Shown here: positions 19,851-41,998 of the stretch, in pieces | How the letters are laid out: each line of letters begins with the position of its first letter | How positions within the stretch are numbered: position 1 is the first letter of the stretch | Virus record (IMG/VR): IMGVR_UViG_3300027874_000011 | Span: 8,121-72,120 of that record | Strand: one strand, 5' to 3' | Source of the DNA: a virus | Lineage: Duplodnaviria > Caudoviricetes | DNA length: 64,000 bases | Notes under the pieces: model-generated | What the model saw: the letters and a program-made list of their open reading frames with translations, nothing else | The model's database searches: none | What the model was told of the DNA's origin: nothing | Translations under genes and position numbers: made by a program

Positions 19851-19880
19851 ATTGTAACCGATTCTCGCACGTGAGCGCAC
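19851..19880 (-). promoter_or_regulatory. Sigma70-like promoter GTGCGC-N18-TACAAT (repeated family)
   Basis: Spacer tcacGTGCGAgaatcggt. Confidence 0.65.
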
Positions 19881-19882
19881 AT

Positions 19883-20104
19883 TTACGTGAGGGCGACGAT
19901 GCCCTCCTCGCGTAGCTGTTCGCGCAGTGCCAGCCGCAGCGCCTCGTGGCGGCTGAGGCCGTGGCGTCTGGCGTACACGACCAGGCCGGCCATCAACGCG
20001 GGGTCGAGCCGCACGCTGACGACGCTCGGGTGCGCTCCCTGGGACGGCTGGCGAGGGCCGTCCACGATTGTCTCAGGGCGCACGATCTTGATCGGGCGTG
20101 TCAT
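19883..20104 (-). CDS. Ribbon-helix-helix (CopG/Arc-like) DNA-binding protein
   Basis: VVSVRLDPALMAGLVVYARRHGLSRHEALRLALRE. Confidence 0.8.
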   Translation of the reverse strand: MTRPIKIVRPETIVDGPRQPSQGAHPSVVSVRLDPALMAGLVVYARRHGLSRHEALRLALREQLREEGIVALT

Positions 20105-21966
20105 CAGATCACCGGTCCGTCTTCGCGTCGGGCAGTGCGGATACGGCCCGCTCCTGGCGTCTCAGCCCGGTCCTGGCCGTCGCGCTGTTGCTGCCGCCGC
20201 CGCTGCTTCTCGCGCTCTGGCAGCAGCGACCAGATGTTGACCGAGCGTAGCGCGGCCTGCTCCTGGGCACGGATGGCGGGGTTGTCAGCCGGGATGATGT
20301 CTTCGATGGCGAAGCGCAGCGTCTCGATCAGATCGAGCGTCTCGTCTTCACTGCAGTCGCCGGTCGCCTGGGACACCGCGAACTCCAGATCCGAGCCGAC
20401 CCAACCGTGGGTGGGCGCACCGAATTCGATCAGCGAGGCCACCGGCACGTCCGGGAACCCGTAGCGCGTCAGCAGCCGACCCAGGATGTCTACCCGCTCC
20501 TCCTCCGTCTCGGGAGCCAGCAGCGCGGCCTTGATGTCGATGCGGCCCGTCCGCTTCATCGCCTCGGGTACCTGCTCAGGGTAGTTGCACGCCGCCATCA
20601 GGAAGATCCGACCCCGGTGCGACTCGTCACCGAGCCACTCCTGCAGCCGCTTCTGCATCGCCGCATCTACCGGGTGCTCGTCTTCGCCCTGTCCCGAGCC
20701 GAATGCTTTGTCGTACTCGTCAATGAACAGGAACGTTGGGGCGAACATCTCGGCACCCTCGATCAGCGTCTCCAGATTGCGCTCAGAGCTACCGACCCAC
20801 TTCTCCTTCAAGACCTTGATCTCGATGGCGTTGACGCGCGTCTCTTTGGCGCACGCCACGGCAATGGCGCTCTTGCCCGTGCCTGGCGGTCCCGAGAGCA
20901 GCACGCCCATCGGTACACCCTTGGTGATGCCGCGCCGCATGCGCGAGATGACCTTGCGGTTCAGCACGTCTTTGAGACGGACGTTGCCGCCGATGCCCTC
21001 GAAGCCGAACGATGGCTCCAGACGCTTGAGCACCGAGCCGTAGCGCACGTCGAGTAGCTCTTGCCCACGCTCCAGGGCCAGCCGCCGCGTGAGTGGCTGA
21101 TCGCCCGCCCGCAGCGTAATGTCTTCGATGTCCCGCCGGTTCTGGCCCGCCGTGATCGCGGCGAACTCCTCAGCGGTGAACGCCGGATCCCACCTGAGCC
21201 ACGGCTTGAGGTCAATCAGGTCACGGATGAACTGCAGCCGCTCGGCCGTGTCTGGCAGCGGCACCCGAATTGGCCGCAGGCCCGACGCCTTGACGACATC
21301 CTCGTGGACCTCAGATGCCGACCGAGCCAGGAACACGATGGGGTTCTGCGCGAACTCCAGATCCGTGTCCGTCGAGGCTTCCTCGACCATCTCAAGGATC
21401 AGCCCGCGCTCCGGGGTGATCGCGTTCTTGTCAGCCGCCGGGATCATGATGTCGGCCCGCGCGATGATGACCGCCGCGCTACCCGCACCACCTGGCACGA
21501 CTGGCCCCGAGTGAGGGTCGTCGGGGTCGTTGTAGCGAGCCTTTTTCAGGAAGTCCAGGGCGAGGCGCAGCATCGCACTTGGCTCCGTGGGAAGCGGGAA
21601 ATCGTCTGGATGCGCCTCAGACCACAGGTCGCCTTGCGTCAGCGCTGCGCGCTCGTCAGGGTCTGATGGTAGCTCGAAGCCCATCGTGGCCTCGAACAGA
21701 CGCCGCATCCTGGGATTGGGGAAGGTGATCTTGTTGCCGTGGATGGTCAAGACCACATCGCGCCGGGGGTGCTCCTGCGTCCCCATGAACTGACCCTCGA
21801 TCCATTCTTGGACCGGCCAGCCCGGGAACACGAAGTCGAAGATGTTCCCCGTCACGAGGAACATGTGCGACTCGCCCCTGGCGAAACGCTGCCGCAGGGT
21901 ATCGAACCACTGTGGCGCGAGCCGCTCTGCGTCCAGAGCGTTGATAACGGTTTCGATGGCGGACAC
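20104..21966 (-). CDS. AAA+ ATPase (CDC48/Ycf46/SpoVK-like)
   Basis: Walker A GPPGTGKS, Walker B LFIDEYDK, SRH AACNYPEQVPEAMKRTGRID; degenerate N-terminal AAA-like half. Confidence 0.92.
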   Translation of the reverse strand: MSAIETVINALDAERLAPQWFDTLRQRFARGESHMFLVTGNIFDFVFPGWPVQEWIEGQFMGTQEHPRRDVVLTIHGNKITFPNPRMRRLFEATMGFELPSDPDERAALTQGDLWSEAHPDDFPLPTEPSAMLRLALDFLKKARYNDPDDPHSGPVVPGGAGSAAVIIARADIMIPAADKNAITPERGLILEMVEEASTDTDLEFAQNPIVFLARSASEVHEDVVKASGLRPIRVPLPDTAERLQFIRDLIDLKPWLRWDPAFTAEEFAAITAGQNRRDIEDITLRAGDQPLTRRLALERGQELLDVRYGSVLKRLEPSFGFEGIGGNVRLKDVLNRKVISRMRRGITKGVPMGVLLSGPPGTGKSAIAVACAKETRVNAIEIKVLKEKWVGSSERNLETLIEGAEMFAPTFLFIDEYDKAFGSGQGEDEHPVDAAMQKRLQEWLGDESHRGRIFLMAACNYPEQVPEAMKRTGRIDIKAALLAPETEEERVDILGRLLTRYGFPDVPVASLIEFGAPTHGWVGSDLEFAVSQATGDCSEDETLDLIETLRFAIEDIIPADNPAIRAQEQAALRSVNIWSLLPEREKQRRRQQQRDGQDRAETPGAGRIRTARREDGPVI

Positions 21967-21995
21967 TCAAACCCTCCTTTGGTTTGTACAAGAGC

Positions 21996-22025
21996 ATTCT
22001 AACGTGTAATCGCACAAGTGCGCAA
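21996..22025 (-). promoter_or_regulatory. Sigma70-like promoter TTGCGC-N18-TAGAAT upstream of the AAA+ ATPase
   Basis: Spacer acttGTGCGAttacacgt. Confidence 0.75.
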
Positions 22026-22028
22026 CAT

Positions 22029-22286
22029 TTAGCCAACGCGGGTGACCCAGGTCGTAGAACCATCGTTCCAGTCGAAGATCTCCACGAACGAGTACGCCTT
22101 GGAGTGGCGGCGCAGATGGCGGTAGTTGGACTGCACCCAGGTCAGGATCTCGGCCAGCGTCTCGGCCTCGAACAGCATGGCTGGCTCGGGGTCGAAGTAG
22201 CCCTTCTCGCCGTGCCGCTGGTGGTCGTGGTGCCACTGGTAGGCCGCGTACCGGCTGGTAACCGGCTCGCGGCCACAGGCGACCAT
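22029..22286 (-). CDS. Small hypothetical protein
   Basis: Coupled ORF in operon. Confidence 0.6.
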   Translation of the reverse strand: MVACGREPVTSRYAAYQWHHDHQRHGEKGYFDPEPAMLFEAETLAEILTWVQSNYRHLRRHSKAYSFVEIFDWNDGSTTWVTRVG

Positions 22287-22531
22287 CAGTCGCCCGCGTC
22301 TTTGCGGACAGCCGAGATCAGGATGCGACCGTCGCCCAGGCCCCCGACCTTCAGTTCGTAGCTCATCAGGTAGGCCACGTCCTGGGGGTTGCCCAGGCCG
22401 GAGATGGTGACCGAGCCACCCTCATCCAGCGCGATCTTGATGAGCAGCAGCGTCTTGAGCACCTGGGCGTTGTCGATCTCCACCATGCCGCGCGGCACGC
22501 GGCCGTCCGAGTCCACGTATTCGATGGGCAT
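22286..22531 (-). CDS. Small hypothetical protein
   Basis: Coupled ORF in operon. Confidence 0.6.
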   Translation of the reverse strand: MPIEYVDSDGRVPRGMVEIDNAQVLKTLLLIKIALDEGGSVTISGLGNPQDVAYLMSYELKVGGLGDGRILISAVRKDAGD

Positions 22532-22534
22532 GGC

Positions 22535-25045
22535 CTAATGGTCCACCACAATCGTCGTCCGAATCAGCGGCAGGTTGGTGTCGCCCATCAGCGTGGCGCG
22601 CACCCAGGTCGGGCGCTCGCGCGGCGTGTCGCGGTACAGGATGCGGTTGTGGGCGCGCCGCCACCAGCAGTGCTTGCGCTCGAAGTCGCGCCCAGGCCCA
22701 GGGGCTTCCGAGCGCGCGGGCTTCGGCTCGGGCGCGCGCAGATGGATCACGAACGCGCCCAGGTCGTCGGGGATCGGGTGGTGGAACGGCTTGATGTTGC
22801 GCTCCACCTCGCGCCTGACGGCTCGATGCGCGCGGATGTGGGGCGTCTCGGTGTACTTGGAATTCAAGAAGCTGAGCCGCTTGAGCAGAAACTCGATCAG
22901 GCTGTGCTCCTCACCCTTGGCGATGTCCGGCCAGCGCGCACCGTAGGGCACGATGGCTCCGGTCAGCATGACCGTGCCGTCGCGCTTGTTGTCGTCGGCC
23001 AGCGGGCACCACACCTCGTAGCCGCGTGCCGTCTCCAGCACCAGCATCCAGTCGATGCGCGCCTCGGGCGCACCCATCGCCGCCTCGAAGCTCCAGAACA
23101 TGGCCGGGTGGGGTGCCAGGCCGCGTGTGACGTGGTGGGCGGGCAGATCCGGCTCGTCGGCCAACTCATCCACCTTGGAGGTCCACAGGTACGGCACCGA
23201 GTCGTGCAGCCCGTGGGTGAGGTACAGGCCCATCGCCTCGGCCATCGTCGGGTCGTCCCAATGACGGGCGATGAACGGGTCGAAGCGCATCGAGCCGTAC
23301 TTGCCCTCGGTGCCCGGGATGCCGAGCGAGGTGGCTGCGGCCAGCGTCATGCCGTACTTTTCGGCCAGCGCGTGCCACGCCTCGGTGTTGCGCCACAGCC
23401 CGTTGCGGGCCTGCTCGGAGTGGATGTGCTGCATGTAGCGCTCCAGCAGCGGATGCCGCTGGTAGCCCGCCGCGATCTGGCGGCGCTCCAGGGATTGATG
23501 CACGGCCTCGTCGCCCTCGGCCACCAGGCGCAGGTTGCCCTGCTCGTCCTCGACCATCATGGCGACCTCGCCAGTAGCACGGACGCGCGCGGCCAGATCC
23601 GGCGGCGCGTCGGGGTGGTCGGCGGACATGACCTCGATGCGCCCGTCGTGGTTGCGCACGCCCGCTCGCCGCTCGGCTCGCTCCACGTCGGTCGCCAGCT
23701 TCTGCAGCCGCGCGCCCTCGTTCTCGCGGTAGTCCACCCGCACCCGCGCGCCCGACCGATGGCGGAAGAACTGGTTGTGCAGGCGGATGCCCCACGGCCG
23801 TACGAGGTCGTGGAATTTCCTGGGCTTGCTGCGCAGGTAGCGGTTGACCAGGCTCATGCGGTCGTTGCTCTCGATGGACATGGCGCAGCGCTCGCACGCC
23901 GCCCACGCGCCAGCCGAGCGGTAGTCTTCGCCGTTCGGCGTGTCGAGCACGAAGTCGTCGCACGGGTATTCCCACGCCGGCTCGTCGGAGTTGCAGAAGT
24001 CGCAGCGGCCCTCGGCGGCATCCTCGATGCTGTTCGGTCGGAAGCTCGACATCAGGTCGGTGAATTCCGCCCGCCCATCCGGGTAGCGCTTGAGCAGCGC
24101 GAAGGCGTCTGCGCTGAACTGCGCCTCCTGCTCGGTGAACGCCTTGCCCTTGTAGCCCTTGCGCCGCGCGATGGCCGTGGTCGCCGCCGCGAAGTCTTTC
24201 ATGTTCATCGGGCCGTTCTTCTGGCGCATCGCGGCCAGTTCCTCGGCGGCTTGCTCCAAAACGCGCGAGCGCTCGGACGACTCGTTGGCCGCATCGACGG
24301 CGGTCGTCAGCTTGCGAGCCTGCTCGTCGCTCAGATCCGAGTGGTCGTGCTCGGCGTGGTCGGCGGGAGCCGTCTGCGCGGTATCGCGAACGAACGTTCG
24401 CAGGATGCCATCGACGCTGATCTTGCCACCCTGCCTGGTTGTCTCCTGGCGGGGTCGGCCGTACATCTCCGCGATGACCTTCGAGATGGGGTCGTTGTCA
24501 GCCGGCGGGTAGGCGTAAGTGAATTCACGGTCGCCCAGGCCGGAGGCGACCATCTCGTTGAACGTCTTCTGCATGTCCCACCCGCGCCGCTTGCCGAACT
24601 GGATGGCAAGCTTGGCCTCCGGGTCGCGCGTGGTCAGCAGCATGCGGCGGTCTTTGTCGTCTTCGATCTCCAGCGTGAGCGGCTCGCCGTCGTCGGGGAT
24701 CTTGCTCTGGACGCCAGCCTCGCGCTCGCGCTTCATCTCCTCGGGGATGAAGTCGGCCAGCTTGCTGACGTTCCACGTGGCTGACTCGCGGTAGCCGTCT
24801 TTGACGAAGTGGGGGTCGCTGGTGACCACCGTCACGTCGCGCTCGCCCAGGCCGGCCTCGACCAGGCGGTCGAGCGTCTCGGGGAGTAGCTCACCTTTGT
24901 GGTAGCTGTCGTCAAAGATCTTGATGATCTCCGAGTCGCCCGTCTCGATTATGGTGTCGTCACGGCGGCTGTCGTGGCCGCGATGGTCGGCGGACTTGTG
25001 CCCGCCGATCTCGGCCGAGAAGCGGTAGCGTCGGCGCTTTGCCAT
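22535..25045 (-). CDS. Large multidomain hypothetical protein (about 836 aa) with a Zn-binding CDFC...CxxC domain
   Basis: ATG at 25045 (ATGA overlap with the radical SAM stop). CDFC...WEYP...WAACERC domain; C-terminal CWWRRAH.R...WV...G..LP motif resembling a common phage VRGHWR-type domain. Confidence 0.75.
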   Translation of the reverse strand: MAKRRRYRFSAEIGGHKSADHRGHDSRRDDTIIETGDSEIIKIFDDSYHKGELLPETLDRLVEAGLGERDVTVVTSDPHFVKDGYRESATWNVSKLADFIPEEMKREREAGVQSKIPDDGEPLTLEIEDDKDRRMLLTTRDPEAKLAIQFGKRRGWDMQKTFNEMVASGLGDREFTYAYPPADNDPISKVIAEMYGRPRQETTRQGGKISVDGILRTFVRDTAQTAPADHAEHDHSDLSDEQARKLTTAVDAANESSERSRVLEQAAEELAAMRQKNGPMNMKDFAAATTAIARRKGYKGKAFTEQEAQFSADAFALLKRYPDGRAEFTDLMSSFRPNSIEDAAEGRCDFCNSDEPAWEYPCDDFVLDTPNGEDYRSAGAWAACERCAMSIESNDRMSLVNRYLRSKPRKFHDLVRPWGIRLHNQFFRHRSGARVRVDYRENEGARLQKLATDVERAERRAGVRNHDGRIEVMSADHPDAPPDLAARVRATGEVAMMVEDEQGNLRLVAEGDEAVHQSLERRQIAAGYQRHPLLERYMQHIHSEQARNGLWRNTEAWHALAEKYGMTLAAATSLGIPGTEGKYGSMRFDPFIARHWDDPTMAEAMGLYLTHGLHDSVPYLWTSKVDELADEPDLPAHHVTRGLAPHPAMFWSFEAAMGAPEARIDWMLVLETARGYEVWCPLADDNKRDGTVMLTGAIVPYGARWPDIAKGEEHSLIEFLLKRLSFLNSKYTETPHIRAHRAVRREVERNIKPFHHPIPDDLGAFVIHLRAPEPKPARSEAPGPGRDFERKHCWWRRAHNRILYRDTPRERPTWVRATLMGDTNLPLIRTTIVVDH

Positions 25046-25740
25046 CAGGCCGCGACCTCGACTTCCTCCCACAGCACCACCTGACCGGTGGCGCGCGTGG
25101 CGCGCATGTCGATCACCCGCTGGTTGCCTGAGCCGGTCCACGGCCCCGCGCCGCCTGAGAGCGCCATGACGTACGGACCGTCGATCAGCACGTCGATCTG
25201 ATCGAGCACATGCTGGACATCAGGCCCACGCCGGTTGAGCGCTTCGTAGGTGAAGCCCGAGTAGACCAGAATGTGGACATCAGGCTCCCTGGCGCGTAGC
25301 TGCGAGACGAGCCACGACAGCGCTTCCGGCTGCGCGAACGGCTCGCCGCCCAGGATGGTCACCCCGTCGTGCGGCTCCTCCAGCAGCGACTTGGCAACGT
25401 CCACGACCGGCACGTCCGTGCCAGCCTCGAAGTCCCACGTCTCGGGCACGTAGCACCCCTGGCAGCGAATCGGGCACCCCTGCATCCGCACGACCGAGCG
25501 TCGGCCCGGTCCCTCGATCAGCGATTGGTGCCAGACGCCAGAGATGCGCAGCACTGGCCCGGTGCCAGTGACGGACGGAAGGCTCATCCCGTTAGTCGGC
25601 CGCGCGCACGCGAGGCCCTCTGGCGCACCGAGCAGGCTCGCCAGGTCAGCACCGATCTCGGAGGCGATCTCCGAGTCAGTGCTCTCGACCAGCAGGTTCC
25701 CGGCCTCCTCGTCTAACAGAGCGAGAAGGATCTCGGGCAC
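25045..25740 (-). CDS. Radical SAM protein, NrdG/PFL-activase-like (4Fe-4S single cluster)
   Basis: SLIEGPGRRSVVRMQGCPIRCQGC (CxxxCxxC), GVTILGGEPFAQ, DVLIDGPY, GSGNQRVID. Confidence 0.9.
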   Translation of the reverse strand: MPEILLALLDEEAGNLLVESTDSEIASEIGADLASLLGAPEGLACARPTNGMSLPSVTGTGPVLRISGVWHQSLIEGPGRRSVVRMQGCPIRCQGCYVPETWDFEAGTDVPVVDVAKSLLEEPHDGVTILGGEPFAQPEALSWLVSQLRAREPDVHILVYSGFTYEALNRRGPDVQHVLDQIDVLIDGPYVMALSGGAGPWTGSGNQRVIDMRATRATGQVVLWEEVEVAA

Positions 25741-25742
25741 GG

Positions 25743-25955
25743 CTACTTCCTCCGCTGCGCTTGCCGCTGCGCCTGAGCGGGAGCCTTGACGACTTCCTTC
25801 TCGGTCAGTTCAGCCTTCTCGACGGTCTTCGCATCGCCGCCCAGGTCCGCGAGGTCTTTGTCGAAGTCAGACTGCAGCTTGTGCATCGACTTCGGGCCTT
25901 TGAACGACACGCTCATGCCGCCGTTCTCGTCTACTTCAAAGGTGATGGTGGGCAC
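25743..25955 (-). CDS. DUF2997-like small protein
   Basis: ITFEVDENGGMSVSFKG...FDKDLADLGG; size and position between DUF1257-like and radical SAM genes. Confidence 0.65.
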   Translation of the reverse strand: MPTITFEVDENGGMSVSFKGPKSMHKLQSDFDKDLADLGGDAKTVEKAELTEKEVVKAPAQAQRQAQRRK

Positions 25956-25994
25956 TGAATTCTCCTTGTGTCCTGAAAGAGGAGGGCTGGCGTC

Positions 25995-26474
25995 CTAGTA
26001 GGACACCAGCACCCGGGTTGCACCATTGACCGTCTGCTTGCGCACGGTCGCGTTCGCGGGGATCTTGCCGAGCGCCTTGAGGCGCGGGATGGTCTTCGTC
26101 AGCACGGTCTTGATGGCCGTGTCGCCATTGACCTTGGCGTACGCCGACTGGATGGCGTCTTCGATCTTGACGGCCTTTGGACCACCCTTGGGGTCCGCGA
26201 CCATCGCCGGAATGTGACCATCGGTCAGCATCGTGTACGACCCGTCAGCGGTCTTCGCGAAGCCCACGTCCACGTAGGAGTAGGTACCGATGCGCGAGAA
26301 CTCTGACTTGGGGATCACGATCTCGGCTGACTGCTTGTTGTCGTAGTTGTAGTAGCCCGACAGCCGGTGGGCCTTGTCGTACACCTGGGCCTGGAGGCCG
26401 AGGGTCGCGATGGCCGCGAGCAGCACCTCTTTGTTGCGAATGCCGCTCAATGCGTAGGACGTGTAGGTGGACAG
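25995..26474 (-). CDS. DUF1257 (Ycf35)-like protein; probable CTG start
   Basis: S.YT...IRNKEVLLAAIATLG...GYY...AEIVIP...DVGF.KTADGSY.ML.D pattern; strong RBS AGGAGGGTGAT just before CTG 26474. Confidence 0.75.
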   Translation of the reverse strand: MSTYTSYALSGIRNKEVLLAAIATLGLQAQVYDKAHRLSGYYNYDNKQSAEIVIPKSEFSRIGTYSYVDVGFAKTADGSYTMLTDGHIPAMVADPKGGPKAVKIEDAIQSAYAKVNGDTAIKTVLTKTIPRLKALGKIPANATVRKQTVNGATRVLVSY

Positions 26475-26524
26475 GGGATCACCCTCCTCTCTTGGTTTCG
26501 CCGTTCCTTCTTCGGCTTGATTCA

Positions 26525-26554
26525 ATTCTAACGGACGTTCGCACGGATGCGCAA
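26525..26554 (-). promoter_or_regulatory. Sigma70-like promoter TTGCGC-N18-TAGAAT upstream of the DUF1257 operon
   Basis: Spacer atccGTGCGAacgtccgt. Confidence 0.75.
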
Positions 26555-26581
26555 CCTTTTCCTGGCCGGTTCGCTCGAAGT

Positions 26582-26595
26582 GATAACGGGTTATC
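26582..26595. promoter_or_regulatory. Palindromic operator-like site GATAACGGGTTATC
   Basis: 27 bp upstream of the -35 box of the DUF1257 operon promoter. Confidence 0.75.
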
Positions 26596-38114: not shown

Positions 38115-40343
38115 ATGACGCTGACCGACTCGCGTACTGCCGCCGAGCAAATCCTGGCGGCGATGGAGTGCAGCCAGTCGCGATGTCGATGTCAGATCTC
38201 TACCCGTCGCGGCCACGGCAACACCCACTGCCCGGTCCATCAGGACAATAGCCCGAGCTTCGGCGTCGTCGTCCGCAACGGCTCGCTGCTGACGCACTGC
38301 TACTCGGGCTGCTCGCAGACCTCGGTCGTGGAGGCGCTCAAGGCGCGCGGGGTGTGGCCCGAGCGCGAGGCGACCTACGTCGCGGACAAAGAGATCCTGG
38401 CCGAGTACGACTACAAGGACGCGGACGGCCACGTGCTGTACCAGGCGGTGCGCTACTGGCCCAAAGAGTTCAAGCAACGCAGGCCCGCCGGTCAGCCCGG
38501 GCGCTGGACGTGGAACCTCGAAGGCGTGCAGCGCGTGCTGTACCGCCTGCCGGATCTGCTGCACGCCGAACCCAATCGGGTGCGCTGGATTCTCGAAGGC
38601 GAGAAGGACGTGGACCGCGCCTGGGCGTCCGGCCTGGTGGCGACATGCAACGTCGGAGGTGCTGGCAAATGGCGCGACGACTACGCCGATACATTCCGTG
38701 GCAAAAAAGTGGTCATCGTTGTGGACAACGACGACCCGGGTCGCAACCACGCCCGCGACATCGCGCGCTCCCTGACCGGAGTCGCCGCTGAGATCTTCTG
38801 GCTCGAACTGCCTGGGCTGGACGACCACGGTGACCTGAGCGACTGGTTTGACGACGGCGGCACGCTCGCCCAACTGCAGGACTTGCTCAAGCAAGCCAGC
38901 CATCCCGACGTGCAGCCGAAGCGCGGCCCCGAGATGCAAGTCACCTCCGACGAGATCCTGTACTCGTGGCCCGAGGAGCAGATCAGGTGCACCTTCTCGC
39001 GGCTGCGCGAGACGGACAGCAGCATGTTGCGCGGGTACATCGAGGTCGTCTCGCAGCGCCCCGACGCTGGCGACAATGGTCTGGTCACCTGGCAGCACAT
39101 CAACCTGACCAATCAAACGGACAAGGACCGCATCGCGAAGCGTCTGGTCAAGGCCGCGCCGCGCGACGAAGACCTGTGGGTCCACGACGTGGAGATCGCC
39201 TTCCGCGAGGTGGCGCGCGCGTTCATGACCGTTCCGCCGCCGCAAGACCTGGCGGACGTAGCTGAAAGCACCGCGCAGTCAGGCTACCTGTTCCGGCCCA
39301 TCGCGCCCCACGGCCAGGTGTGTGAGTTCCTGGCCGACCAGGGCACGACAAAGAGCTACCTGATCCTGTACTTGCTGATGTGCACCGCGCTCGGCCGCGA
39401 GTCGATCTTCGGTATGCCAACCGTGGTCGGACCGGCGATCTTCTTCGATTGGGAAACCGACATCGAGACGGTGCGCCGACGCCTGGGCTGGATCTCACGC
39501 GGCATGGGCCTACTCGAACCGCCGCGCGGCCTGCACTACGTCAACATGTCAGATCGCGGCAAGCTCATGGACCGCGCCCGCGACATGCGGCACCAGATCG
39601 CCACGACCGGCGCGGTTGCCATCGGCATCGACAGCCTGACGTTCGCTACCGGCGGCGACCTGGCCGGTTCAGACATCAGCGCACCCACGATGAGCGCTAT
39701 CGGTGGCCTCGGACCCGGGGTCACCAAACTGGTTAGCACCCACCCACCCAAAGCCTCGCGCAAAGGAGACGCTACCGATGTATCGGCTGTAGGCAGCGGC
39801 CTGTTTGAGTTCCGCGCTCGCGGTATCTGGCACTTGCAGCGGCCCCGAGAGTTCTCCCCCTCGTTCATTGTCAGCATGACGCAGCACAAGAACAGCGACG
39901 ACGAACGCTTCGGGCCGCTCTATTACCGTGTCAGCTTTGACCGCAACCGTCAGGCCGTGTCGTTCTCGAATGCAACTGCTGATGACGAACCTGAACTGTC
40001 CAACCGAGTCGAGAGCGCACGTTCAAAGATCCTGCGGTACCTGCAGCGCATCCCCGCGCACCAGGCCAACATCTCAAGCATCGCACGCGAGATCGAGGAG
40101 CGACCCGACACAGTACGTAGAACCTGCAACCGAATGGAAGACGTGCTCCAGCGACTCGGCAGCGATAGCGCCACTGCAGTTTGGGCTTTACGCCAGAACA
40201 CCAACGGTACCAACGGCCACGTCCGTGTTGATGTCCGGGACACTGAGATACTTGTCCCGGGACAGTCCCGGAGCACCGACGATCCGCAGATTGGTGGCGA
40301 AAATGGCGACCAGACTGACGATGGGCAGGACTTGCCCTGGTGA
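38115..40343 (+). CDS. DNA primase-helicase (Zn-binding + TOPRIM + RecA-type/AAA_25 helicase)
   Basis: HCPVHQDNSPSF...HCYSGC; WILEGEKDV...GGAGKW...VDNDDPG TOPRIM; ADQGTTKS variant Walker A; IGIDSL Walker B. Confidence 0.92.
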   Translation: MTLTDSRTAAEQILAAMECSQSRCRCQISTRRGHGNTHCPVHQDNSPSFGVVVRNGSLLTHCYSGCSQTSVVEALKARGVWPEREATYVADKEILAEYDYKDADGHVLYQAVRYWPKEFKQRRPAGQPGRWTWNLEGVQRVLYRLPDLLHAEPNRVRWILEGEKDVDRAWASGLVATCNVGGAGKWRDDYADTFRGKKVVIVVDNDDPGRNHARDIARSLTGVAAEIFWLELPGLDDHGDLSDWFDDGGTLAQLQDLLKQASHPDVQPKRGPEMQVTSDEILYSWPEEQIRCTFSRLRETDSSMLRGYIEVVSQRPDAGDNGLVTWQHINLTNQTDKDRIAKRLVKAAPRDEDLWVHDVEIAFREVARAFMTVPPPQDLADVAESTAQSGYLFRPIAPHGQVCEFLADQGTTKSYLILYLLMCTALGRESIFGMPTVVGPAIFFDWETDIETVRRRLGWISRGMGLLEPPRGLHYVNMSDRGKLMDRARDMRHQIATTGAVAIGIDSLTFATGGDLAGSDISAPTMSAIGGLGPGVTKLVSTHPPKASRKGDATDVSAVGSGLFEFRARGIWHLQRPREFSPSFIVSMTQHKNSDDERFGPLYYRVSFDRNRQAVSFSNATADDEPELSNRVESARSKILRYLQRIPAHQANISSIAREIEERPDTVRRTCNRMEDVLQRLGSDSATAVWALRQNTNGTNGHVRVDVRDTEILVPGQSRSTDDPQIGGENGDQTDDGQDLPW

Positions 40344-40445: not shown

Positions 40446-40708
40446 CCAGGTGTCTCGGTTCGACTAGTGTCGAGGGTGGCGATGGCGAAAGCTAAACGCC
40501 GAACGCCGTCGAGCGGCCGAATGCTCAGGACGGTCGGCAAGGTGTGGGACTGTGCGAGGTGCATGGACCAGATGCTTGGCGATCTGCCGCCGGGCGAACG
40601 GTGTTGGGAGCACAACCCGACACCCGAGGAGCGCGAGGCGCATCCCGAGCGCTATTCGAGATCGAAATTCGCAGGATCAGCGACTTTGAAGGAGGACAAG
40701 GCTCCGTC

Positions 40709-41998
40709 ATGACGATTCTCGACAGTCTCGAAGCCGAGGTGGAGGTGCTCGACCTGGCGCAGGGCCTGGACACCACCGACCTCGAAGGCAAAGACGACGA
40801 CACGCTCATCAGTGAGGCCCGCTGGCACGTCGAGCAGGCGCGCTTCCATCACGGCCAGTCGCTGCTGCACGGCCAGGAGGCCGGTCGGCGGCTGCTGGTG
40901 CTGCACGCCAGGACCGCACGTCGAGGTCGCTCTGGCGAGTTCTCCAACGCGCTGGTCGAGGAAGTCGGCATCTCGCGCAGCCACGCCTACAACCTGATGG
41001 AGCTTGCGCGGCCAGAAAACGTCCAGCGCGTTGGACAATTAGCCGAAGACCCGGACGCCTCGATCCGCCAGGCACTGGAGATGCTGCACGCCGAGCGCCG
41101 TGAGGAGCGCCGCGAAGCTGCACGCGCCGAGCGACAGGCGCGCATGCAGTTCCCGGCACCGGTGGATCTGCCCGCCAACTTCAACATCGACGTGGCTGAG
41201 ATGCCAGCGCTGCCCATCCCGGACGGGTTGGCCGACTTGATCGTCACGTCGCCGCCGTACGGCCTGGGCATGGCGTACCACGAGTCTGATGACTCTGAGG
41301 GCTACGAGACGTATCTGACGCACGCGCTCGAATGGTCCGATGAGCTATTCCGGGTGGCCGGGCCGCAGGGTCGTCTGTGCCTGAACGTGCCACTGGACAT
41401 CTCACACGACGGCGGCTACTTCGCGCCGAAGCCGATCTACGCCGACTGGGTGGGCGCACTCAAGGAGGCCGGCTGGCGCTACCGCACGACGATTGTGTGG
41501 AACGAGGACAACATCACGCGGACGACGGCGCGTGGCAGCGTGGACAGCCCCAACTCGCCGCACGCCATCGCCCGGGTGGAGATGATCGCCGTGATGTACA
41601 AGGGCATGTGGAATCTGGAGCGCCAGGGCCAGTCGGCGGACATCACCCACGACGAGTGGCTCGACTGGACCAACGGCTTGTGGACGTTCCCGGGTGCCAG
41701 CCCGATCTCGCCGGATCACTGCCCGGCCCCGTTCCCCGAGGAGTTGCCGAGGCGCTGCATTCGGCTGTTCAGCTTCCCGAATGACGTGATCTTGGACCCG
41801 TTCGTGGGCAGTGGCACCACCGGCGTGGTGGCGTACGAGACGGGCAGGCAGTTCTACGGCTTCGACCGCTCCGCGCTGTACATTGAGCAGGCCCGTGAGC
41901 GAGTATCAAGCGCCATCGCTCGTCTGCGCACGAACGGGCACATGGCGCAACCACGACAGCCCGCCTCTGAGTTTCAGGGAGCAGCAGCAGGTTTTTGA
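40709..41998 (+). CDS. DNA methyltransferase (N4-C/N6-A, beta class) with N-terminal DUF3102-like domain
   Basis: LIVTSPPY (motif IV), APFPEELPRRCI, ILDPFVGSGTT (motif I); N-terminal EAGRRLL...GEFSNAL...GISRSHAYNLMELA. Confidence 0.92.
   Translation: MTILDSLEAEVEVLDLAQGLDTTDLEGKDDDTLISEARWHVEQARFHHGQSLLHGQEAGRRLLVLHARTARRGRSGEFSNALVEEVGISRSHAYNLMELARPENVQRVGQLAEDPDASIRQALEMLHAERREERREAARAERQARMQFPAPVDLPANFNIDVAEMPALPIPDGLADLIVTSPPYGLGMAYHESDDSEGYETYLTHALEWSDELFRVAGPQGRLCLNVPLDISHDGGYFAPKPIYADWVGALKEAGWRYRTTIVWNEDNITRTTARGSVDSPNSPHAIARVEMIAVMYKGMWNLERQGQSADITHDEWLDWTNGLWTFPGASPISPDHCPAPFPEELPRRCIRLFSFPNDVILDPFVGSGTTGVVAYETGRQFYGFDRSALYIEQARERVSSAIARLRTNGHMAQPRQPASEFQGAAAGF

Follow-up and report, generated by a model that had tools for sequence, protein, structure and literature searches.

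What would a tailed phage use an NrdG-type activase for, when the reductase that such enzymes activate is not found beside it? The question is raised by IMG/VR virus record IMGVR_UViG_3300027874_000011 (Caudoviricetes; 72 kb, 81% complete), of which bases 8121-72120, a stretch of 64,000 nucleotides (nt) here called the window, were analysed. Seven co-oriented genes on the minus strand run leftward from 26474 to 20104 (20104-26554 when the promoter is included) and encode, in this order, a DUF1257-like protein (p176), a DUF2997-like protein (p70), a radical S-adenosylmethionine (SAM) enzyme, a protein of 837 amino acids (aa), two small proteins (s81 and s85) and an AAA+ ATPase. Sequence comparison firmly supports the assignment of this unit to a conserved set comprising a radical SAM enzyme, an AAA+ ATPase, a DUF1257 and a DUF2997 protein. 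The best overall explanation is that the locus represents the phage copy of a conserved four-gene core, rearranged, transcribed from two promoters and putatively combining radical chemistry with protein unfolding, to which we assign a probability of about 50%. The seven genes are:

25995..26474, minus strand: p176, a divergent DUF1257 (Ycf35-like) protein, probably 159 aa from a CTG start (the listed open reading frame reaches 26525)
25743..25955, minus strand: p70, a divergent DUF2997-like small protein, so placed by profile match, size and position
25045..25740, minus strand: NrdG-like radical SAM enzyme, 231 aa, with Fer4_12 at 1e-31 and cluster motif CPIRCQGC
22535..25048, minus strand: the 837-aa orphan protein, with repeats, coiled coil, zinc ribbon, conserved alpha/beta region and basic tail
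22286..22531, minus strand: s81, 81 aa, conserved only in the phage clade (tblastn 47-54% identity at the same position in contigs L002-L004)
22029..22286, minus strand: s85, 85 aa, conserved only in the phage clade (tblastn 33-39% identity at the same position in contigs L002-L004)
20104..21966, minus strand: AAA+ ATPase, 620 aa, classic clade, PF00004 at 1.5e-25

An earlier reading made from the letters alone (the sequence-only reading) had described seven tightly packed leftward open reading frames (ORFs) forming one unit. All seven are present on the minus strand and packed as stated, and their order is retained in the related metagenome contigs L002-L004. Gaps of 39 nt and 2 nt separate p176 from p70 and p70 from the radical SAM gene, respectively. 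The stop codon of the latter overlaps the start of the 837-aa gene (ATGA), a coupling retained in L004. The 837-aa gene is followed after 3 nt by s81, s81 and s85 overlap in TGATG, and 62 nt containing a promoter motif lie between s85 and the AAA gene. An 89-aa frame overlapping s85 (21967-22236) is not conserved. The length of p176 is most likely 159 aa with a CTG start, because its relatives begin at the residue encoded by this CTG (17 codons into the listed ORF), GGAGGG lies 7 nt ahead of it, and the listed upstream TTG falls inside the -10 box.

A radical SAM enzyme apart from the reductase activases

The radical SAM enzyme belongs to Fer4_12, as had been anticipated, and matches TIGR02491 NrdG over its full length with 114.5 bits, short of the equivalog cut-off of 126.1. 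An HMMER search with the enzyme retrieved a subfamily of 220-250 aa proteins sharing its N-terminal extension of ~60 aa. A tree of 97 sequences (quick IQ-TREE search) split the module-linked radical SAM enzymes from the NrdD-linked phage NrdGs at an SH-like approximate likelihood ratio test (SH-aLRT) value of 100. The window enzyme is nested in the clade bearing the extension (SH-aLRT 100), inside a 15-row set supported at 98. The extension aligns with DUF2997 in profile-profile comparison (hhalign; probability 92%, E 6e-7, 40 columns), which indicates that the module enzyme carries a fused copy of its small DUF2997-like neighbour. The presence of such a copy in turn suggests DUF2997 is a docking element for the enzyme. 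NrdG-like domains were also observed at the C-terminus of two proteins of ~900 aa, P0079 (904 aa) and P0099 (883 aa).

The sequence-only reading had described an NrdG-like enzyme without NrdD in the window, and had allowed that an nrdD gene elsewhere on the contig might explain it. NrdD (PF13597) was looked for across the whole 72-kb record, 81% complete, and was not found. Among 40 viral contigs with an ordinary NrdG-like gene, examined for comparison, 36 carry NrdD, including 16 of 16 that are at least 90% complete. Neither NrdD nor the Gly_radical domain was found in five module-bearing bacterial genomes, the completeness of which was not established. Taken with the tree, these comparisons firmly set the enzyme apart from ordinary reductase activases.

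The four-gene core in bacteria and other phages

To place the enzyme among bacterial relatives, one genome per species was scanned with the alignment of radical SAM enzymes bearing the N-extension. The scan returned 80 loci, of which 70 match the alignment from residue 1. Most belong to Acidobacteriota, with others in Chloroflexota and in metagenome-assembled genomes (MAGs) of Micromonosporaceae, Hyphomicrobiales and Ignavibacteriaceae. A same-strand AAA gene lies upstream in 40 of the 47 N-extension loci that offer at least 2.5 kb of upstream flank, and the pattern spans several phyla. The full set is seen in the L054 operon, ordered AAA, DUF1257, DUF2997 and radical SAM, with both DUF proteins above their Pfam cut-offs. 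The co-occurrence of the four families in bacteria, put forward in the sequence-only reading, is hence a recurrent one. A Lachnospiraceae locus (L083) combines radical SAM, DUF2997, a helix-hairpin-helix (HhH) protein and AAA; other Bacillota and a Melainabacteria locus have enzyme and AAA within ~2 kb, while the AAA match in a Labilithrix locus is weaker and ~3 kb from the enzyme. The AAA genes of these bacterial loci, and those of the cultured phages described below, belong to phrog_8638.

Some bacterial copies are interrupted or extended. In L018:4758-7966, two tyrosine recombinase genes (343 and 726 aa) lie between DUF2997 and radical SAM in an otherwise normal module. Their products were considered as accessory subunits and ruled out, both being integrases that point to an insertion. 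A pair of like size (346 and 741 aa) occupies the same place in L015:1881-5092. In the Chloroflexota locus L025:8594-12004, the module is followed by a 1136-aa protein with DUF6094 methyltransferase and SNF2 helicase regions, which may be a neighbouring defence gene.

Four cultured phages, Rhizobium L338C, Aeromonas HJ05, Pseudomonas SM1 and Rhodobacter RcMenchie (L005-L008; 79-110 kb), share a cassette without the radical SAM gene. It is ordered AAA (phrog_8638), a ~210-aa protein, DUF1257, DUF2997 and a ~120-aa protein (phrog_38408 in L338C), and sits between lysis and replication genes. The ~210-aa and ~120-aa partners were considered as counterparts of the radical SAM enzyme, s81 and s85, and rejected as no similarity was found. 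Our initial reading, in which AAA, DUF1257 and DUF2997 form a triad and the radical SAM enzyme is a mere addition, was set aside because this radical SAM subfamily adjoins the AAA and DUF genes across phyla.

No published description of the four-gene core was found, in keeping with the earlier suggestion of an undescribed system, and the literature was not found to connect radical SAM enzymes with either ycf46 or DUF1257. The only published link found is the cyanobacterial duf2997-ycf35-fed7 cluster, as in Synechocystis (PMC4284462). The role in host takeover or anti-defence proposed in the sequence-only reading is not supported; many free-living soil bacteria have this core on their chromosomes.

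p176 as a remote DUF1257 protein and p70 as a probable DUF2997 protein

The DUF1257 and DUF2997 models of Pfam remain silent on p176 and p70 even at E<=10, both among the window proteins and in a direct search of the record. Neither protein, nor s81, s85 or the 837-aa protein, has a family match in Pfam, PHROGs, NCBIfam or PADLOC. The two family names given to p176 and p70 from the letters alone are right in the sense of remote homology, the second of them probably so, and profile-profile comparison was required to establish this.

A profile of p176 relatives aligns with the DUF1257 proteins of bacterial modules at a probability of 97.3% (hhalign; E 2e-11, 117 columns), one member of that comparison set (L054:7400-7798) being above the Pfam cut-off. 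Tblastn of p176 matches DUF1257 genes of bacterial modules with E down to 3e-7, and its nearest ESM Atlas clusters are DUF1257 in 30 of 30 cases. Alignment of 52 sequences, taken from bacteria, cultured phages and the phage clade, shows an invariant core of D-x-G-F together with one more glycine, an aspartate and a tyrosine. Hence p176 can be firmly considered a remote DUF1257 homologue. It is tempting to speculate that the invariant glycine, with the aromatic residue after it, is a site of hydrogen abstraction.

For p70, comparison with DUF2997 of the bacterial modules gave a probability of 67.5% (hhalign; E 5e-5, 45 columns), against 0.08-0.6 for unrelated-pair controls. The protein also fits the family by its size and by its position directly after DUF1257 and before the radical SAM gene. 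We consider p70 a probable DUF2997 homologue, with moderate confidence.

The AAA+ ATPase

The ATPase belongs to the classic AAA+ clade, with CDC48, PAN and FtsH as nearest models, which agrees with the CDC48 type claimed for it earlier. Its motor motifs are intact, including Walker A (GPPGTGKS), the pore loop (KWVG), Walker B (FLFIDE) and the arginine finger (RTGRID). The best PHROG match is phrog_8638 at 1e-24, restricted to residues 312-562; the module AAAs elsewhere match this family over their full length. The N-terminal domain of the window protein comprises 345 aa and is unusual, with all of its relatives being close ones. Against PADLOC-DB 2.0, the AAA domain only weakly matches IetA and TRIP13, the other six proteins of the unit match nothing, and no defence system was matched.

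A different picture is seen in the modules of Pyrinomonadaceae and Blastocatellia (L054:5765-7384 and ~40 others, L022-L080). Here the AAA protein has GLPGCGKD for the GK[ST] of Walker A, a pore loop GGGVIG without an aromatic residue, and GISE in place of the Walker B DE. This acidobacterial protein is probably a pseudo-ATPase.

The 837-aa protein

Only 12 relatives of the 837-aa protein were found in 5.8 billion proteins (lengths searched 460-1465 aa), and a scan of IMG/VR with the family alignment returned no relative. Those on readable contigs all stand in the same gene order, and the protein is absent from all bacterial module copies examined. The family is marked by an invariant CxxC...CxxC zinc ribbon (C349/C352/C385/C388), a conserved alpha/beta region rich in tryptophan, and a conserved basic C-terminal tail (H-C-W-W-R-R-A-H). 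Its N-terminal third consists of ~90-aa repeats (strand, D-P, helices, G-L-G-D-R, strand), the number of which differs among relatives (L002, L004, P0011, P0012), with two relatives having an extra N-terminal extension of 500 aa.

Two AlphaFold models of the protein reached a predicted local distance difference test (pLDDT) score of 65 and 67, the second omitting the C-terminal tail. Fold searches with these models matched no solved fold (Foldseek against the PDB, E >= 0.08; VIA-wide best Z 5.7, helical hairpins only), and in BFVD retrieved only a 92-aa protein of Streptomyces phage Wakanda. The family profile found only a zinc-ribbon-like piece among PDB sequences (E 0.02), with 7CI1 not among the matches. 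In 401 Actinomycetota genomes, the same profile found only the zinc-ribbon segment (CDFC...CERC and the following helices) in two genomes, within frames of 193-570 aa (L149-L152; E down to 6e-9).

A possible relationship to AcrVA2 emerged from the ESM Atlas, where the nearest entries to residues 340-837 are ~430-aa actinobacterial clusters, 22-49% with PF26125 AcrVA2-like (score 0.96, 26 of 30 hits). AcrVA2 attaches to the nascent Cas12a N-terminus and causes the Cas12a mRNA to be lost, and the AcrVA2 family combines a variable N-terminus with a C-terminal H-x-R-x-x-H essential for activity (H286/R288/H291; 10.1101/2022.11.29.518452). The 837-aa family has a variable N-terminus and a near-invariant C-terminal H-x3-R-R-A-H, and the only local hhalign match between the two pairs their R-R-[AG]-H motifs, at P-H-I-R-R-G-H of AcrVA2. 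The 837-aa protein could thus be an independent anti-defence or gene-silencing protein of AcrVA2/FinQ type, with a variable N-terminus for target binding and a conserved basic C-terminus, embedded in the operon without working with the core, and its absence from bacterial module copies would be consistent with this. We built an AcrVA2/FinQ profile of six members, made up of five relatives from plasmids, FinQ among them, and a homologue from Shewanella phage Y11 with a match to 7CI1 at E 1.5e-72. The 837-aa family aligned with it at P 0.33-0.73, which is not significant and no better than the reversed control (0.2-0.24). Furthermore, 7CI1 was missing from the PDB profile search and from every fold search, and a search of the 401 Actinomycetota genomes with an AcrVA2 homologue gave two chance-level hits, the one checked lying inside an amidase-like gene. 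The conserved ATGA coupling to the radical SAM gene argues for joint use of the two proteins. A possible AcrVA2/FinQ-like nature of the C-terminal half is a lead that alignments and fold searches do not confirm, and an independent protein of this type, while conceivable, appears doubtful.

The translational coupling to an activase-like gene could also be explained if the 837-aa protein were a new glycyl-radical (or other protein-radical) enzyme, with the NrdG-like enzyme as its dedicated activase in the manner of NrdD-NrdG and PflB-PflA. In length it is comparable to glycyl-radical enzymes, its strongly conserved tail contains a near-invariant glycine 15 residues from the C-terminus (G822, in L-x-G-D), and the record contains no other substrate candidate of that size. 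However, Pfam reports no Gly_radical, PFL-like or NRDD match even at E<=10, the context of G822 is unlike R-V-x-G-[FYW], the modest-confidence models contain no ten-stranded barrel, and fold searches came back empty. Bacterial members of the same radical SAM clade occur without the 837-aa protein; therefore, the substrate of the clade must be something else. We regard a new glycyl-radical enzyme as improbable.

Promoter motifs and other sites

The sequence-only reading had placed a TTGCGC-N18-TAGAAT promoter at the head of the unit, a second promoter before the ATPase, and an operator of its own upstream. The sites concerned, and a hairpin, are:

26525..26554, minus strand: promoter-like motif P1, TTGCGCA-N3-GTGCGA-N8-GTTAGAAT, ahead of the DUF1257-like gene
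21996..22025, minus strand: promoter-like motif P2, immediately preceding the AAA+ gene and belonging with P1 to one 30-nt class
26582..26595, no strand assigned: GATAAC-NN-GTTATC, a palindrome lying upstream of the module and present 8 times in the window
25986..26010, minus strand: G+C-rich hairpin (11 pairs) with a T-rich run after it, spanning the p176 stop codon

Both motifs were found, and their positions are conserved in related contigs. TTGCGC-N18-TAGAAT occurs exactly twice in the 64 kb (P1 and P2), against 0 expected, and the two are identical at 21 of 30 bases. A P1-type motif also precedes the homologous gene in L004, and a P2-type motif precedes the AAA gene in L002, L003 and L004. 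A function of P1 and P2 as promoters appears likely from these patterns. A third, degenerate copy of the motif, GTGCGC..GTGCGA..GGTTACAAT, is located at 19851-19880 on the minus strand and precedes the next gene downstream of the module. This gene is a zinc-ribbon / DnaJ-CXXCXGXG-like ORF, the true ATG of which is probably ~37 nt downstream of the listed start at 19882.

The palindrome is real, with 8 copies in the window (positions 916, 10347, 26582, 32121, 42174, 52564, 58408 and 60961) against 0.4 expected, mostly at gene ends or intergenic, and frequently takes the longer form AGCGATAAC..GTTATCGCT. A phage regulator probably binds at these sites. The distribution of the palindrome across the window means it is phage-wide and therefore not the module's own operator. 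The hairpin could act as an attenuator between p176 and p70, a possible but weak reading since terminator-like sites are no commoner in the window than in shuffled sequence.

Genomic setting and host

The window has a G+C content of ~65%. At 1-17 kb the plus strand carries tail and baseplate genes, and farther downstream, past the early region, it encodes a primase (phrog_6088; 38115-40343) and a DNA methyltransferase (phrog_67, 3e-42; 40544-41998). One gene adjoins the module on its downstream side:

19883..20104, minus strand: ribbon-helix-helix (CopG) protein, 73 aa, RHH_1 at 1.2e-7; its start overlaps the AAA stop by one base

The CopG protein has no tblastn match in the related contigs L001-L004, and its gene is probably not part of the module.

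Near-identical DNA is present in several soil metagenome runs; the runs listed as holding the stretch are all DNA runs, with no RNA run among them. No close cultured phage was found: megablast of the module gave no match, and neither did tblastn against cultured phages with p176, a baseplate protein or the C-terminal half of the 837-aa protein as query. Three clues, none of them proof, suggest an actinomycete host, namely a TAGAAT-type -10 box, 88% identity over one fifth of the query to a partial AAA protein that carries the name of a Lentzea MAG, and one structural match to a small protein of a Streptomyces phage.

Proposed mechanism and its alternatives

We propose the following mechanism for the phage copy of the core. 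In this copy the four core genes are adjacent and co-oriented, in the rearranged order DUF1257, DUF2997, radical SAM, three clade-specific genes and AAA+, and two matching early-type promoters would transcribe the unit. The radical SAM enzyme would cleave SAM and take a hydrogen atom from a protein partner other than a ribonucleotide reductase, the likeliest partner being the co-conserved DUF1257 protein with its invariant D-x-G-F glycine. Docking would fall to DUF2997, in its free form as well as in the form fused to the N-terminus of the enzyme. The AAA+ motor, with its intact pore loops, would unfold, load or recycle the DUF1257 protein or its target. Given its variable N-terminus and conserved C-terminus, the 837-aa protein, whose synthesis would keep pace with that of the radical SAM enzyme, is the leading candidate for the component that confers target specificity on this clade early in infection. 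Protein modification combined with unfolding is a reasonable expectation from the families involved. A more specific version, in which the four genes form a new protein machine that carries out radical or modification chemistry on a Ycf35-type protein via DUF2997, with the AAA+ protein unfolding the client and the 837-aa protein acting as AcrVA2-like adaptor that aims the machine at a host factor, seems unlikely in that full form.

Several observations weigh against a phage core that works in the way outlined above. Each biochemical step is borrowed from what the families do elsewhere. The related phage contigs share the flanking genes too, so synteny alone does not prove a functional unit. 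Pfam is blind to both p176 and p70, the DUF2997 link of the latter is only moderate, and p70 is without the conserved G-x-x-C of that family. The N-domain of the window AAA matches the usual N-domain of the module at a probability of only 6%, and the ATPase could therefore be a replacement rather than an orthologue. Most of the 40 AAA-linked bacterial loci come from one acidobacterial lineage, as seen from identical motif strings, and are not independent. The degenerate Walker and pore motifs in most acidobacterial copies are a poor fit to a universal unfoldase role. In addition, the copies are mobile, with two integrases inside the L018 operon and more than one module copy in several genomes, which argues against one universal mechanism, and the cultured proteobacterial phages keep AAA, DUF1257 and DUF2997 without the radical SAM enzyme, so that the radical step is dispensable in some lineages.

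The core could instead be devoted to maturation of a peptide or small protein, akin to that of ribosomally synthesised and post-translationally modified peptides (RiPPs). DUF2997 or DUF1257 would then be the modified species, recognised by the N-domain of the enzyme, with the AAA+ protein assisting export or processing. The proximity of a small protein to a radical SAM enzyme bearing a fused copy of the same small-protein fold would suit such a pathway, as would the conserved glycines and cysteine of DUF2997. However, the enzyme has a minimal NrdG/PflA-type core with neither of the domains, SPASM and twitch, that radical SAM enzymes of RiPP pathways usually have, no protease or transporter belongs to the core, and DUF1257 and DUF2997 are conserved like folded proteins rather than as a leader with a hypervariable core. 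A RiPP-type role consequently appears quite unlikely. An ordinary activase, whose partner would be the NrdD of the host or an NrdD encoded in the part of the phage genome missing from the record, and whose neighbours would be unrelated early genes, is very improbable: while TIGR02491 is the closest named family and the record is incomplete, the score is below the equivalog cut-off, the clade is separate from NrdD-linked NrdGs and adjoins AAA, DUF1257 and DUF2997 in several phyla, five clade-bearing genomes were found without NrdD or a Gly_radical protein, and ordinary phage NrdGs nearly always have NrdD on the same contig.

The interest of the conserved four-gene core and its phage copy lies in the combination of parts. 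That an NrdG/PflA-type activase should stand beside an AAA+ protein and two small proteins in phages and several phyla, without a glycyl-radical enzyme, suggests a process based on protein radicals or protein modification, of which no description was found in the literature. Conservation of the ycf35 family and of its DUF2997 neighbour extends over cyanobacteria and algal plastids, and both are still unexplained; should the new machine exist, the orphan genes ycf35 and ycf46 of plastids and cyanobacteria would for the first time become open to biochemistry. Advantages of the phage copy are its compactness, its defined promoter motifs and its motor motifs, which are intact, unlike those of many bacterial copies, and the cultured phages bearing the related cassette can be handled in the laboratory. 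The clade-specific 837-aa protein may reveal what the machine acts on, and the DUF2997-like N-extension of the enzyme provides a concrete and testable idea of how the parts dock.

Comparison with known systems

The resemblance of the 837-aa protein to AcrVA2/FinQ (PF26125; 7CI1, 7CI2) consists of carriage on mobile elements, N-terminal variability and, near the C-terminus, a conserved basic motif built around R-R-[AG]-H. In contrast to AcrVA2/FinQ, the 837-aa protein is more than twice as long, contains a zinc ribbon and N-terminal repeats, and is encoded by a gene translationally coupled to that of the radical SAM enzyme; sequence, profile and fold comparisons gave no significant similarity between the two.

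The cassette of the cultured proteobacterial phages also joins a phrog_8638 AAA to DUF1257 and DUF2997 within a single transcription unit, surrounded by early and replication genes. It differs in gene order, in having the ~210-aa and ~120-aa partners instead of a radical SAM enzyme and an 837-aa protein, and in an AAA N-domain that is the usual one, whereas that of the window is not. The ycf35, DUF2997 and ycf46 genes of cyanobacteria and plastids likewise comprise the same two small-protein families, adjacent to each other and associated with a classic-clade AAA+ protein, their functions being unassigned. The phage proteins, by comparison, are too divergent for Pfam, and a radical SAM enzyme is part of the phage set.

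Closest in chemistry are the NrdG-NrdD and PflA-PflB pairs, which have the same minimal radical SAM core (Fer4_12, C-x3-C-x2-C, GGEP) and by analogy suggest hydrogen abstraction from a protein. Those pairs include a glycyl-radical enzyme, for which neither the record nor the five module-bearing bacterial genomes provided a counterpart. The module enzyme is further distinguished from NrdG and PflA by its separate clade, its sub-cut-off NrdG score and its extra DUF2997-like N-terminal domain, and has as its fixed neighbours an AAA+ ATPase and two DUF proteins.

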